Positions 1,492 through 62,890 of a stretch of 64,000 nucleotides of DNA are shown here, piece after piece. Position 1 is the first letter of the stretch. Every line of letters starts with the position of its first letter. Made by a program: the position numbers and the translations under genes. The notes beneath the pieces were generated by a model. It had not been told where the DNA came from. It searched no databases and saw only the letters and a list, made by a program, of their open reading frames with translations. This DNA is from an uncultured Verrucomicrobiae bacterium. GTDB lineage: Bacteria; Verrucomicrobiota; Verrucomicrobiia; Limisphaerales; UBA11358. The stretch lies in NCBI GenBank assembly GCA_963835625.1, contig CAWIGO010000007.1, positions 75,415-139,414 of the forward strand, given 5' to 3'.

Positions 1492-1579
1492 AGAAGGCAG
1501 AAGATAGAATGAAGAAATAAATGCTGATCTCTCCGCCCGCTGGCTGGTTTCTGCATTCTTCCTTTTTCATTCTGCCTTT
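1492..1579. repeat. imperfect inverted repeat built from GGCAGAA/GAATGAA-type heptamer-like units
   Basis: AAGGCAGAA (1494-1502) is the exact reverse complement of TTCTGCCTT (1570-1578). The inner GAATGAAGAA and TTTTTCATTC segments can pair in several registers. It lies in the 109-nt nifJ to DHOD-like spacer. Confidence 0.8.
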
Positions 1580-1584
1580 CGGGT

Positions 1585-4500
1585 TTACGGTTGTTGATCC
1601 TCCGTTGCCGCGGGTTGGGGTGACGCGGGCTGGCCATTGCCGGCCTTGGTGTCGCGTTCCGCCAGAAATTGATAGAATTTCCAACGGCGATCGGCATCCA
1701 CCTGGGCCTGGGCGAAAAGTTTTTTCGCCTCTTCCGGTTTGCTCTTGGTCAGCATCTTGAAACGGTTTTCCGAGAGCAGATAATCCCGCACTTTTACTTT
1801 TGCCGCCGGGGAATCCGTTTGCAGCGGATTTTCTCCGCGTTGAGCGCGGCGTGGATCGAAGCGGTAAAGCAGCCATTGGCCTGAATCCACCGCGAGTTTC
1901 TGCTGGCGCGCGCCGACGCCCATGTCCACCGCGATGCCATGCGCGATGCAATGGCTGTAGGCAATGATGAGCGAGGGACCGGGATAGGATTCCGCCTCCA
2001 CGAACGCGCGGAGGGTTTGCTCATCCTTCGCGCCCATCGCGACACTGGCCACGTAAATATTGCCATAGGTCATCGCGATCAGGCCGAGGTCTTTCTTGCC
2101 CATGGCCTTGCCGCCGGCGGCAAACTTGGCCACCGCGCCGCGCGGCGTGGACTTGGACATCTGTCCGCCTGTGTTGGAATAAACCTCCGTGTCAAGCACG
2201 AGCACGTTGACGTCGCGTCCACTCGCCAGCACGTGATCCAAACCGCCGTAACCGATGTCGTAGGCCCAGCCGTCGCCGCCGACAATCCACACGCTCCTTT
2301 TAACGAGCATGTCGGCAAGTCCCGACAGCAATTTCGCCCCGGGTGAATCGAGCTTCTGCAATTTTTGTTTTAATGCCGCGACACGCTCGCGTTGGGCGTA
2401 AATACCCGCCTCATCACCTTGGTCGGCGTTGAGAACGGCTGCCACCAAATCGTCGCCAAGCTGCGGCGCGAGTTTTTTCAGGAACTCGTTTGCAAATTCC
2501 CTTTGCTTGTCAATGGAAACGCGGAAACCAAGGCCGAACTCCGCGTTGTCCTCGAACAACGAATTGCACCATGTGGGCCCCCGGCCCTCGGCATTTTTGC
2601 AATAGGGCGTCGTGGGCAGGTTGCCGCCGTAAATCGAGGAACAGCCGGTGGCGTTGGCGATGACCGCACGGTCGCCGAAAAGCTGTGTGAGCAGTTTGAT
2701 GTAAGCTGTCTCGCCGCAACCGGCGCACGCGCCGGAAAATTCGAACAACGGTCGCATCACCTGCTGTTGCCGTAGGACAGTGGATTTAATTTTTCGCCGA
2801 TCCATTTCCGGCAGACCAAGGAAGAAGTTCCAGTTCTCGTGCTCCGCCGCGCGCAGCGGTGCCTGCGGCTGCATGTTGATGGCCTTGAGTTTTGCTTCCG
2901 TTTTGTTGCGGGCAGGACAAACATCCACGCACAACCTGCAACCCGTGCAGTCTTCCGCCGCGACTTGCAATGTAAATTTGAGACCTTTCCATTCCGGCAC
3001 GCGCGCGTTCGTGCTCTTGAACGTCGCTGGCGCGCCATTCAGGGCCGCAGGTTCGTAAACCTTCGCCCGAATCGTCGCGTGCGGACAAATAAACACGCAC
3101 TTCAGGCACTGGATGCAAACCTTCTCGTCCCAAACCGGAATTTCCAATGCGAGATTGCGCTTTTCGTATTGGGCGGTGGCCGTCGGAAACGTGCCATCAT
3201 TCGGAAAGGCGCTGACCGGGACTTCGTCACCTTGTCCGGCAACCAGTTTGCCGAGCACGTCACGAACAAAAACCGGCGCGTCCGGCGTCACCGGCGGCAG
3301 CAAGCTGCCCGCGCCGTTCGCCTTGCAATTGGACAACGGGACTTCATGAAGGTGCGCCAGCGTATTATCCACCGCCTTGAGGTTCATTTGAACCACTTCC
3401 TCGCCCTTTTTGCCGTAGGTTTTCTGTATGGAATGCTTGATGGACTCAATTGCTTCATCCTTCGGCAGTACGCCGGACAATGCAAAGAAACAAACCTGCA
3501 TGATGGTGTTGATGCGCCCCCCCATGCCGCTGTCGCGCGCGACTTTGGTGGCGTCAATCACGTAAAATTTCGCCTTCTTTGCAAGGAGCGCTTCCTGCAC
3601 CGGCGTCGGCAGCTTCGACCAAATTTCGCCCGGTGCGAAAGGCGTGTTCAATAAAAACGTCCCACCGGGCACAAGACTGGAGAGCATGTTGTAACGTTCC
3701 AGAAACACCGGCTGATGGCACGCGACAAAATTCGCCTTTGAAATCAAATATATGGAACGAATCGGTTGCGGGCCGAACCGCAAATGCGACACGGTCATTG
3801 AGCCGGACTTTTTTGAATCGTAAACGAAGTAACCTTGCGCGTAATTGTCCGTTTCTTCGCCGATGATTTTGATGGAATTTTTGTTCGCGCCCACCGTGCC
3901 GTCGGATCCCAATCCGTAAAACAACGCTCGAATGACTTTGTCCGACTCGGTCGAAAAATCCGGATCGACCGGCAGGCTCGTGCCTGAAACATCATCATTA
4001 ATGCCGACCGTAAAATGATTTTTAGGCTTGTCCAAGGCAAGATTGTCGAACACGGCCTTGATCATTGCCGGCGTAAATTCCTTCGAGGACAGACCGTAGC
4101 GGCCACCCACAATTTTGGGCGGCGTTCTCAGGCGTCCCCATCCGTTGGTCATGCCTTCGAGAACCGCCACCATGCAATCTTGATACAGGGGTTCGCCCGC
4201 CGCTCCCGGTTCTTTTGTGCGGTCGAGAACGGCAATGGACCTGACCGATGGCAGCAGCGTTTCAACGAATCGTTTGCTGTCAAATGGGCGATACAACCGG
4301 ACTTTGAGCAGGCCGAATTTCCCGCCGCGAGAGTTCAAATACTCAACTGTTTCGTGGGCAGTTTCACAACCCGAGCCCATGAGCACAATGATGTGCTCGG
4401 CGTCCGGAGCGCCGACGTAATCAAAAAGCCGATATTTGCGGCCTGTGTGCCTGGCGAATTCATCCATCACTTTTTGCACGATGTCAGGGCAGACGGCGTA

Positions 4501-61685: not shown

Positions 61686-62713
61686 TTGCTTTGCTGAACC
61701 TGCCGCGTGATTTCAAAGGCCAGGTCGAGTGCGCGTTTGGCAGATTCGCCGCTGACCATCGGTGTTTGTTTTTCGCGGACGCAGTTGACGAAGCTTTGCA
61801 GTTCGAGTTTGAGCGGTTCGTCTTTGGCAATCGGCACCGGTTCGCGGACGATGCGTTTGCCGCTGAATTCGCTGACGATGGTGGAATTCTTGCCGACGCC
61901 GAGTTTCGCGGCCAAAACTTTTTTTAGAAGCGAGCTTTCCTCCTCACTGTCGCGGGCGATGCGATAAATGAAACCCTCCTGTGCGCGATAATCGAGCGAG
62001 ATGTAGCAGGGATTGGTCGGGCCGCTGAACACGCGGATTTTCCGCATCCGCTCCGGGCTGACGCGGCTAGCCGTGAGGTTGGCGACGCAGCCGTTGGCGA
62101 AACGCAGCCGCGTATTGGCAATGTCCTCGGACTTGCTCAAAACTGGAATGCCGACGGCGTCCACGCTCGTCACGGGCGATTTGACGAATGCCAGCACGAC
62201 ATCGAGGTCGTGAATCATCAGGTCGAGCACGACACCGATGTCGGTCGAGCGGGCAGGGTAGGGCGACAGGCGGTGTGCCTCGATGAAGCGCGGCTCGGTG
62301 GCGACCTGCTCGAGATATTTGAATACGGGATTAAATCGTTCGACGTGTCCGACTTGCAGGACGCAATTTTTTTGCCGGGCCAGTTGAATCAATTCAGCAG
62401 CTTGCGTGGTGTCGTCGGTCATCGGTTTTTCGACAAGGACGTGTTTGCCCTGCGACAATAAAGTTTTTGCCAATTCAAAATGCGTAACGGTCGGCGTGAC
62501 AATGTTCAGTGCGTCGCTGGCGGCGGCGGCTTCGGCGACGGACCTGAAAATGCGCGCGTTGTGTTTGGCGGCGATTTTGCGGGCCGTGTCGGTATTGGCG
62601 TCAAAAATTCCGGCGAATTCGATCTGCCCTGTTGTAGCGAGTTCGGCGTAAATGCGGGCATGTTCCTTGCCGAGCGAGCCGACACCGAGGACGGCCACGC
62701 GAAGTTTGTTCAT
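61682..62713 (-). CDS. Gfo/Idh/MocA-family NAD(P)-dependent oxidoreductase
   Basis: The ATG at 62713 gives MNKLRVAVLGVGSLGKEHARIY (Rossmann GxGxxG), then EKPM and an alpha/beta C-terminal domain. It is upstream of lpxB in the same transcriptional direction. Confidence 0.85.
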   Translation of the reverse strand: MNKLRVAVLGVGSLGKEHARIYAELATTGQIEFAGIFDANTDTARKIAAKHNARIFRSVAEAAAASDALNIVTPTVTHFELAKTLLSQGKHVLVEKPMTDDTTQAAELIQLARQKNCVLQVGHVERFNPVFKYLEQVATEPRFIEAHRLSPYPARSTDIGVVLDLMIHDLDVVLAFVKSPVTSVDAVGIPVLSKSEDIANTRLRFANGCVANLTASRVSPERMRKIRVFSGPTNPCYISLDYRAQEGFIYRIARDSEEESSLLKKVLAAKLGVGKNSTIVSEFSGKRIVREPVPIAKDEPLKLELQSFVNCVREKQTPMVSGESAKRALDLAFEITRQVQQSK

Positions 62714-62869
62714 GGTTGCCACAGGGCGAGTTTGCCATTGAAAACGCCTCACGCCAAGAGCGCAAAGGGCGCAAATAACGCAGGTTTCTAGCCTGTCCGT
62801 CGCCGTTGCGGTTGTTCGCTGACAGCCAGGCTGGCCGGCGTGCAGGCGAGACGCCTGCGCTACTTTATA

Positions 62870-62890
62870 TTTGGACTTTGAACTTTGAGC
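62870..62890 (+). repeat. three TTTGGAC-family heptamers upstream of plsY
   Basis: The units are TTTGGAC TTTGAAC TTTGAGC. They are preceded by the hairpin GCAGGCG-aga-CGCCTGC (62842-62858). Confidence 0.8.

Follow-up and report, generated by a model that had tools for sequence, protein, structure and literature searches.

Tandem heptanucleotide arrays between and within genes of a Limisphaerales (Verrucomicrobiota) genome

Introduction

How do tandem repeats of a 7-nt unit come to lie inside the reading frames of housekeeping genes, when seven is not a multiple of three? The question is raised by a 64,000-nt stretch of DNA, the whole of which is termed here the window, from a soil metagenome-assembled genome (MAG) of the Limisphaerales (Verrucomicrobiota, 'subdivision 3'), in which short heptamer arrays lie both in the spacers between genes and in-frame within them. 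The assignment to this order comes from searches with ProRS and GlnRS. The analysis confirms a genuine, non-random and genome-wide population of heptanucleotide arrays, which is an unusually coding-rich case of a known, mechanistically unexplained bacterial repeat class.

Results

A tandem excess specific to seven nucleotides

Arrays in the window were detected with Tandem Repeats Finder (TRF) and with a purpose-made lag-p scan (+1 for a match, -3 for a mismatch, score of at least 10), using 200 dinucleotide-preserving shuffles of the window as the null model. The scan returned 11 strict arrays at period 7 and 0–1 at every other period from 4 to 12, whereas the shuffles gave on average 0.10 period-7 arrays and at most 1. 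The original prediction of a tandem heptamer population beyond chance is therefore borne out, and TRF recovered nearly all of the coordinates listed for it. The departures concern a proposed CGCAAAG family, which is not heptameric (41786–41817 has period 8 and 62752–62785 has period 9), a tract placed at about 32345, where nothing is detectable, and the tract at 44672–44700, which is irregular and to which TRF assigns period 6. The unit families recur within the window, GTCCAAA at five loci and CTCAAC at three, and reappear in relatives and in metagenomes.

The comparison was extended to 80 proS-centred loci from related MAGs (1.31 Mb, one genome per species; labelled L001 and so on, and termed here the relatives), which hold 85 period-7 arrays and 1–27 arrays at each of the remaining periods. 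The isolate Limisphaera sp. VF-2 had no arrays in the 21.7 kb covered. Separation of coding from non-coding DNA by our own codon-usage gene calls gave 51 arrays in coding sequences (CDS) and 45 outside them. In coding DNA, periods 6, 9 and 12 yield 1.9, 1.0 and 0.8 arrays per 100 kb and period 7, the commonest, yields 4.3; in non-coding DNA period 7 reaches 22.8 per 100 kb, where other periods give 0–5. Heptamer arrays are thus about 5-fold denser outside genes than inside, although the coding share is still unusually high. Exact two-copy duplications are enriched alike for 6-mers (2.65x), 7-mers (2.7x) and 8-mers (2.95x), whereas three or more exact copies form 33 arrays for 7-mers and 0–8 for other unit lengths. 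Because the two-copy enrichment is similar and the higher copy numbers are nearly exclusive to 7-mers, the 7-nt bias acts on expansion or persistence and not on birth. The population displays the features of heptanucleotide long simple sequence repeats (LSSRs) and of the short tandemly repeated repetitive (STRR) type: a tandem excess at 7 nt, dispersed unit families, variation in unit number and enrichment in non-coding DNA.

Coding arrays occupy loops, linkers and termini

Eight or nine single arrays of the window lie in loops, linkers or termini of ispG, recJ, glnS, acnA, proS, lpxB and an ABC-2 permease gene. These gene identities had been proposed from the translations and are upheld by NCBIfam and Pfam, and the translated peptides match. 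The coding arrays are:

16879–16913, plus strand: (GAATTCA)~4.7, in-frame in ispG just after the TIM-barrel part, peptide SNSEFRIRDSEF.
22314–22348, plus strand: (CAACTCT)~3.6, in-frame in recJ (QLSTFNSQPST), in a loop 4 aa longer than in the solved RecJ 8y30.
31439–31467, plus strand: (GTCCAAA)~4, at the annotated N-terminus of the ABC-2 permease (MSPKSKAQSPK).
39471–39500, minus strand: CTCAAC-type array at the C-terminal hot spot of glnS, conserved tail in the +1 frame.
40803–40837, minus strand: (CGAAATC)~4.7, in-frame in glnS, within a ~40-aa insertion absent from solved GlnRS structures.
45305–45332, plus strand: degenerate (CTCAACC)~3.9 with 75% matches, in-frame in acnA, +15 nt relative to array-less orthologues.
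52652–52691, plus strand: (GTCCAAA)~5.7, in-frame in the 51-nt proS linker (PESKVQSPKSKV).
60151–60222, minus strand: composite in lpxB of a GTCCAAA array, a 38-nt GC-rich palindrome (60167–60204) and a GTCCAAA array, in-frame peptide KSKVQSPPVLRSSSATEGGKSKVE.
61537–61553, minus strand: 2.4 units of AAAATCC in open reading frame (ORF) 60810–61685 (GFGFWIL).

The ABC-2 permease array could instead be a 5' leader, if the true start lies downstream. The last array, missing from the earlier list, is possibly due to chance. Its host ORF (60810–61685, minus strand) encodes a membrane-like protein of 291 aa with no Pfam or NCBIfam match and atypical codon usage. L001 and other relatives lack the ORF at the corresponding place, only ~80–240 nt separating lpxB from the conserved gene after it, and the ORF is probably a recent insertion.

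Relative to solved structures (compared for glnS, recJ and ispG) the coding arrays fall in insertions or loops, and array-less alleles are present in close relatives. Ortholog and structure comparisons therefore agree with the earlier suggestion that the coding arrays are lineage-specific additions or replacements in loops and linkers and not conserved peptides. In-frame additions of the kind made by Rickettsia palindromic elements (RPEs) are seen in acnA (+15 nt), L001 lpxB (+24 nt), glnS (the 40-aa insertion) and recJ (the loop of +4 aa). A conserved palindromic element of ~100–150 bp with a conserved peptide, as in RPEs, is not what these sites contain, the arrays being tandem heptamers of 20–40 nt.

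Reading frame and sense strand

A tandem heptamer encodes an identical 7-residue repeat in all three frames, so any stop-free unit fits any phase if the total length keeps the frame. The coding copies had all been described as read through in-frame, and the peptides do match the translations, save that the glnS tail lies in the +1 frame after 39471–39500. At this point (39380–39500, minus strand) one extra T relative to orthologue L201 displaces the conserved C-terminal GlnRS tail. A truncation by gain of a whole heptamer was considered, as removal of 7 nt restores the frame, but was rejected on the L201 comparison, which shows only the single extra T. Two further genes of the window, secD (ORFs 18171–19247 and 19177–20715; ~19000–19250) and an M50 peptidase gene (ORFs 43121–43666 and 43584–44078; 43584–43666), are split by frameshifts away from the repeats, which suggests indel errors in the contig, or pseudogenes. 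Because the difference is a single T and other frameshifts of the window lie off the repeats, the glnS frameshift is treated as a probable assembly error, and it is most likely an assembly indel rather than the mark of a truncated GlnRS. The contig probably carries indel errors, and no conclusion depends on a single-base detail of the assembly.

The same strand of each unit had been reported to be the sense strand in every coding copy checked. The rule holds in the window and has exceptions elsewhere: GATTTCG is the sense strand in L062 and L066, and among 129 (GTCCAAA)3 occurrences in metagenome contigs, with the strand judged by long-ORF context, 69 are GTCCAAA-sense and 22 TTTGGAC-sense, while a further 24 lack a long ORF and 14 are ambiguous. 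Read in antisense, CTCAACT and GAATTCA contain TGA, and AATCGTT, which has stops on both strands, occurs only between genes and is never coding. In the relatives the antisense reading contains a stop in 7 of the 51 CDS arrays, and of the 43 that are open on both strands, 31 have the more hydrophilic peptide in the sense reading. Thus, from the antisense stops and the hydrophilicity bias, the sense-strand rule is an ordinary selection filter and not a mechanism.

Hot spots of concerted change

Orthologous positions behave as hypervariable hot spots: even between genomes ~91–93% identical, a given site may hold other heptamer units, a GC-rich palindrome or no insert at all. Window 43986–63827 has a collinear counterpart in L001 (BLAST segments mostly ~93% identical, full alignment 91%), and the 19 kb aligned at 91% contain 17 hypervariable blocks, of which at least 5 carry heptamer arrays and ~7 GC-rich palindromes resembling repetitive extragenic palindromic (REP) sequences. 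Several of these blocks lie in-frame in genes.

The proS linker displays this behaviour most fully. It measures 51 nt in most orthologues, the majority of which carry the conserved non-repeat sequence PKTAAREIGAAIE, while the heptamer alleles are scattered through the tree in the same register and are built from units that are one-step neighbours (TCCGAAA, TCCGAAG, TCAGAAG, TCAGAGG, TCCAAAG and TGCAAAG/TGCGGAG). Some of the linkers hold arrays in decay, and in others GC-rich palindromes interrupt an array or stand in its place. Between the window and L001 a sharp block of ~45 nt is replaced with identical flanks, and the more distant orthologue P0031 carries the window's allele, so exchange of proS alleles by recombination is likely. 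The conserved non-repeat allele of array-less orthologues (for example L014 10718–10768) contains a perfect 7–8-bp inverted repeat, GCCGCGC-GCGAAATCG-GCGCGGC, on either side of CGAAATC, the same heptamer that is the unit of arrays in other lineages. About 2 kb found in L001 (7940–9964) between the fumarylacetoacetate (FAA)-hydrolase gene and proS are missing from the window (51843–51886).

Similarly, the acnA site has a 36-nt baseline to which arrays add 15 or 24 nt and palindromes 48 or 60 nt; lpxB has two or three hot-spot sites at which, as in proS, units change in concert at constant length; GlnRS has two sites with more than 10 heptad families among orthologues; and the M16 peptidase gene shows the same pattern. 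The array upstream of plsY also changes its units in concert at constant length. Overall, coding arrays change sequence in concert and keep their length, and non-coding arrays change unit number. The risk that gain or loss of a unit shifts the frame, which the original prediction had stressed, is arithmetically real, but the coding arrays are length-stable, with the proS linker at 51 nt whatever its sequence. The coding arrays therefore do not behave as phase-variation switches: they keep their length among orthologues, and they reside in aminoacyl-tRNA synthetase (aaRS) genes, recJ, ispG, acnA and lpxB rather than in the non-essential, usually surface, genes of phase-variable contingency loci.

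A dominant unit for each genome, as expected from ectopic homogenisation, is suggested by the window but was rejected on L066, which has six units in 21 kb. Elsewhere, a single large ORF in L037 (12675–15569) contains five period-7 arrays of C-rich units (CCTCGCA, CCCCTCT, GCCCCTC) encoding Pro/Ser/Arg-rich repeats.

Hairpins and single arrays between genes

Five arrays of the window are paired with an imperfect complementary array (76–90% complementary) to form hairpins, listed here with the minimum free energy (MFE) for three of them and the z-score of the fold against shuffled sequence:

1492–1579, minus strand: degenerate heptamer hairpin (AGAAGGC/AGAATGA arms), arms 78% complementary, MFE -26.2, z = -2.3.
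13257–13345, plus strand: heptamer hairpin, (GAATGCA)4 then (TTCTTCA)2(TTCTGCC)2, 83–88% complementary, MFE -36.7, z = -6.0.
21681–21750, plus strand: heptamer/octamer hairpin (GAATCGT / AACGATTC) of period 7–8 in the terC-recJ gap, z = -5.7.
23492–23569, plus strand: heptamer hairpin, (GTCCRRR)4 + (TTTGGAC)5, in the recJ-ispD gap, MFE -37.4, z = -6.2.
25621–25695, plus strand: weak degenerate TGAATCG-type hairpin filling the spacer between an S41 peptidase gene and tsaD, z = -0.9.

Three of the five are very stable, one is moderate and one weak, the last being a tract that had been listed at 25621–25695 and is present there in this degenerate form. All five bridge the stop codon of one gene and the initiation codon of the next, co-directional gene, with each codon 0 to ~17 nt from the hairpin. 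The hairpin at 1492–1579 lies between the stop of a pyruvate:ferredoxin oxidoreductase gene (1585–5253) and the start of a dihydroorotate (DHO)-dehydrogenase-like gene (480–1475). The hairpin at 13257–13345 is the entire cdsA-dxr spacer: the 5' base of its stem includes the cdsA stop, and its 3' arm is immediately followed by the dxr ATG (13347). That at 23492–23569 adjoins the recJ stop on one side and leaves ~9 nt to the likely ispD ATG on the other. In the 21681–21750 hairpin the 5' arm encodes the C-terminal ~8 codons of TerC (20728–21705), so that the copy earlier counted as a coding array of terC does encode the TerC C-terminus but is not a separate array. The loops and flanks of the five hairpins are unrelated to one another, and thus the hairpins are not copies of one mobile element; their unit types differ as well.

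Pairing distinguishes the two settings also in the relatives, where a complementary partner lies within 150 nt of 17 of the 45 non-coding arrays versus 2 of the 51 coding arrays, the other 49 coding arrays being single. An (ATTTACG)n/(CGTAAAT)n hairpin with 3–5 units per arm, varying by species, ends a few bases upstream of the FAA-hydrolase ATG, is kept in at least 10 species and is missing from the window and from L001; the differences in unit number make alignment of its orthologues unreliable. It lies between divergent genes, and the placement between co-directional genes originally proposed is thus true of the five window hairpins but not of all hairpins of this kind.

Two regions of the window contain single arrays upstream of genes:

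44672–44700, plus strand: irregular T-rich TTCATNN repeats of period 6–7, 17 nt upstream of the acnA ATG, unstructured and conserved in L001.
62870–62890, plus strand: (TTTGRAC)~2.7, located ~22 nt upstream of the plsY start.

In L001, L015, L017 and L025 an array is kept at the position of the plsY-upstream one, with units CTTTGGA, CTTTGAA and CTTTCAA. A CDP-alcohol phosphatidyltransferase gene also has a single array upstream, and the distances for this gene, acnA and plsY are 17–24 nt.

Several identities were considered for the hairpins and rejected. A terminator scan returned none of them as an intrinsic terminator, and they have long A/T-rich stems, loops of 11–39 nt, no T-run and a start codon directly after. 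No Rfam family matched them in a scan of the window, in which the sole match is a tRNA gene (12101–12173, minus strand). Neither strand is the better folder (sense to antisense, 11 to 9), so nothing points specifically to RNA-level selection, and the orientation of non-coding arrays relative to the downstream gene was mixed in the relatives, with no consistent strand. Membership of the REP, REP doublet forming hairpins (REPIN) or miniature inverted-repeat transposable element (MITE) classes was also rejected, as the hairpins have in common only the 7-nt unit and no target-site duplications were found.

GC-rich palindromes and arrays in other phyla

A second repeat class in the window consists of GC-rich REP/REPIN-like palindromes such as AGGTAGGGCGCG...GCCCTACCT and TGCTGCCGGCATCCTGCCGGCAGA:

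26069–26125: GC-rich palindrome in tsaD (25696–26784).
48263–48325: GC-rich palindrome in the M16 peptidase gene (47700–50258).
50742–50798: GC-rich palindrome.
57688–57754: GC-rich palindrome.

At least two palindromes of the window lie in-frame inside conserved genes, and in the relatives palindromes alternate with heptamer arrays at identical hot spots. Composites in which a GC palindrome stands between two arrays are found in window lpxB, L017, L041 and L052, and the palindrome family of window lpxB is present outside arrays too. That the arrays might be target-site-duplication footprints of repeated palindrome insertion and excision was rejected: no direct repeats flank the palindromes outside arrays, and the replacements are not simple insertions. 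In L052 (6026–7095), a non-coding stretch of 1.2 kb made up of repeated modules, in the order (TTCGATG)n, GC-rich palindromes (CACCCTCACCC...CTCGAGGGAGAGGG) and (GTTCAAA)n, has the look of a larger composite repeat.

Metagenome contigs chosen for one (GTCCAAA)3 contain 85 more period-7 arrays of other units in 521 kb, compared with 15, 5 and 8 arrays of periods 6, 8 and 9, and by inspection the host genes in these contigs include uvrA, carB, mfd, leuS, a dnaE-like gene, purL and secA. One such contig (40% GC) belongs to Candidatus Roizmanbacteria (Patescibacteria), and its SecA orthologues show the same hot-spot behaviour. Period-7 runs of at least four identities occur in 10 of 120 SecA, 23 of 120 ProRS and 9 of 120 GlnRS sequences. 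At the other periods from 4 to 11 such runs are lacking in ProRS and number one in GlnRS (period 10), while SecA has none at periods 4–6 and a period-8 run in 107 of 120 sequences that looks like a conserved motif. In the Roizmanbacteria secA (L202 1598–1650) a 21-nt palindrome, CTGCCTTGCCGGCAGGCAGGC, sits exactly in phase inside (AAGTCCA)n and is read as PALPAGR. It resembles the small dispersed palindromic mobile repeats which Elhai is said to have described, in 2008, nested in the heptamer arrays of Nostoc.

Discussion

Relation to known repeats

The original prediction knew of no formal description of the system. The class itself is published, as heptanucleotide LSSRs, STRR, TAACTGA and GGGAATC repeats, and what stands is that a literature search found no description of heptamer arrays for Verrucomicrobiota or at such coding density. 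STRR comprise several heptamer families with hundreds of dispersed copies, in arrays of few units and in stem-loops of operon spacers such as those of nif. To our knowledge, extensive in-frame coding copies have not been described for STRR, from which the window arrays differ also in unit sequences and phylum. The STRR heptamers of heterocystous cyanobacteria (Calothrix, Nostoc, Anabaena) are cited in PMC4692102.

As related in PMC4679880, the survey of Mrazek 2007 found heptanucleotides to be the most abundant LSSR class in many prokaryotes, proposed polymerase slippage over ~7 nt and reported that multiples of three are favoured in genes. The present arrays resemble LSSRs, as outlined in PMC4679880 and PMC4692102, in the 7-nt excess over other unit lengths, the non-coding enrichment and the occurrence in large GC-rich genomes of non-pathogens. 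In contrast to the survey rule as given there, period 7 is here the commonest also inside genes, ahead of multiples of three, and the arrays lie in essential housekeeping genes with many unit families coexisting; neither Verrucomicrobiota nor Patescibacteria is among the cases these outlines describe.

TAACTGA repeats of marine Beggiatoaceae, cyanobacteria and Bacteroidetes (MacGregor 2015, PMC4679880), for which a cold-shock protein (Csp) or S1 has been proposed as binder, similarly form runs of 2–6 heptamers just upstream of starts without Shine-Dalgarno (SD) sites, are patchy across phyla, have their ORF orientation set by stop codons and place their coding copies at protein termini. They differ in having a single unit, against dozens here, no inverted-array hairpins, and coding copies that are rare and peripheral. 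Xanthomonas and Nostoc carry GGGAATC and GGGGA(C/T)T repeats (Rehm 2015, PMC4692102) that likewise form arrays of ~4 units, preferentially between co-directional ORFs and near stop or start, and GGGAATC arrays are transcribed; but these repeats are rich in G, fold into G-quadruplexes and are under-represented on coding strands, whereas the arrays described here are A/T-biased, without G-runs and frequent in CDS. RPEs, a form of selfish DNA (PMC10969869), also place repeated DNA in-frame in unrelated, often essential genes at fold-compatible positions, although as mobile palindromes of ~100–150 bp with conserved sequence, whereas here only the 7-nt unit is common; the GC-rich palindromes at the hot spots are a closer RPE analogue than the heptamer arrays. 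Phase-variable contingency loci, for example of Haemophilus (PMC2651432), share with the arrays units that are not a multiple of three within reading frames, but the genes that host arrays here are essential housekeeping ones, orthologues keep the array length, and no sign of on/off switching was found.

Origin of the arrays

The arrays are read here, with a probability of about one half, as heptanucleotide LSSRs (STRR-like microsatellites) produced by 7-nt-biased slippage, conversion and template switching, filtered by selection and shuffled by recombination. Any short duplication would be born, and only 7-nt units would expand efficiently to 3–6 copies by slipped-strand mispairing, a step that the copy-number counts directly support. 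Misaligned repair or gene conversion would then homogenise the units and spread arrays into neighbouring sequence, with occasional conversion between arrays, and by this step a substitution would reach all units at constant length. Template switching may make inverted copies nearby, giving hairpins with array arms, and homologous recombination would exchange alleles with and without arrays among related genomes. In the spacers, selection would tolerate arrays and hairpins, and unit number would vary. Inside genes, the survivors would be those that are stop-free on the sense strand, hydrophilic, placed in loops, linkers or termini and of a total length that keeps the frame. The operon hairpins probably affect mRNA stability or translational coupling, as a side effect and not as the reason for their existence.

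Several observations weigh against this reading. Arrays replace sequence at unchanged length, which stepwise slippage alone does not give. GC palindromes are nested inside arrays repeatedly (window lpxB, L041, L052, L202), a hint of a more specific DNA transaction. Unit families recur across sites and phyla, GTCCAAA and CGAAATC-like arrays lying in-frame even in SecA of Candidatus Roizmanbacteria, and one unit family is present at both GlnRS hot spots of the same genome 7 times versus 2.9 ± 1.6 by chance, a modestly positive result obtained on related sequences. A loose pattern is common to the 59 distinct units, in which a few A's precede a part richer in G/C, and their consensus carries 4.45 bits against 3.43 ± 0.10 for identically aligned random heptamers, with coding and non-coding subsets alike. 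We know of no enzymology that explains a preference for 7 nt. The slippage idea is itself, in the account given by PMC4679880, a published conjecture (Mrazek 2007).

The arrays may instead be RNA-level cis-elements, tandem sites for a single-strand-binding OB-fold protein (a cold-shock protein or ribosomal protein S1, one domain per ~7 nt), with the stop-to-start hairpins acting as coupling or stability devices in genomes largely lacking SD sequences, the period as the footprint of the protein and the coding copies as spill-over. Hairpins that bridge stop and start within 0 to ~17 nt, three of the five with z of about -6, would suit such a role, as would the (ATTTACG)n/(CGTAAAT)n hairpin that at least 10 species keep directly before one gene's ATG, the single arrays 17–24 nt upstream of three genes and the loose consensus common to the units. 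CspB binds heptamer direct repeats with one protein per heptamer, and TAACTGA repeats lie just upstream of start codons without SD sites (PMC4679880). The role is nevertheless doubtful, as the sense and antisense folds are equal and make no RNA-specific use of G-U pairs, neither the A-rich nor the T-rich strand is consistently upstream of starts, the units differ widely between loci, more than half of the arrays lie inside genes, the conserved hairpin is missing from the window and L001, and neither an Rfam family nor a terminator signature was found for the hairpins. Selection on the proteins, with heptad-repeat peptides (KSEIRNP, SKVQSPK and others) kept as useful flexible linkers, is very improbable: the peptides are hydrophilic, Pro/Ser/Lys-rich and placed in linkers and loops, and the proS linker has a conserved length, but the same units build non-coding hairpins, one site holds unrelated peptides, palindrome-derived peptides or nothing, the DNA repeat is perfect including its synonymous positions, and close relatives lack the arrays. 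An assembly or sequencing artefact can practically be dismissed, despite the indel errors suggested by the three apparent frameshifts in the window (glnS tail, secD and M50 peptidase), as dozens of assemblies, made independently in different projects, have the arrays at orthologous sites, in-frame and with related units.

A dedicated DNA system, either a mobile composite of arrays flanking GC palindromes of the REP or small dispersed repeat (SDR) kind or an enzyme inserting pre-formed arrays at permissive sites, would account for the array-palindrome-array composites (window lpxB, L041, L017, L052), the in-phase palindrome of the Roizmanbacteria SecA, the alternation of arrays and palindromes at the same hot spots, the excess only at three or more copies and the same unit families across sites, genomes and phyla. 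It appears unlikely, as no conserved ends, target-site duplications, shared loops or shared flanks were found, a genome can carry many units (L066 has six in 21 kb), species differ from one another by single units in array length, palindromes of the window lpxB family are found also outside arrays, and no candidate enzyme was identified in the 64 kb of genome, where transposases were not looked for. A broader conjecture, likewise unlikely, is that the arrays and their nested or alternating GC palindromes are the footprint of an unrecognised DNA-level process spread across phyla (Verrucomicrobiota, Patescibacteria and, reportedly, cyanobacteria), which would write or homogenise 7-nt arrays as multi-copy blocks without a change of length, so that the surface loops of essential proteins would be rewritten continually; its alternative is a passive by-product of slippage.

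Significance

The dominance of heptanucleotide repeats among bacterial LSSRs has been an open question since 2007, and mechanism and function are unexplained even in cyanobacteria. The present lineage is informative in that its arrays are dense and their orthologous sites are available in hundreds of MAGs, and half of the arrays lie in conserved single-copy genes, where ancestral state, register and length can be read exactly. The data separate birth, which is not specific to seven nucleotides, from expansion or persistence, which is. Because of the arrays, proteins look more divergent than they otherwise would, and long-read MAGs tend to acquire frameshift errors at them; the arrays could also serve as fine-scale strain markers. 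For the organisms themselves, essential proteins, among them aaRSs, RecJ, LpxB, aconitase and SecA, carry rapidly exchanging loop cassettes encoded by repeats.

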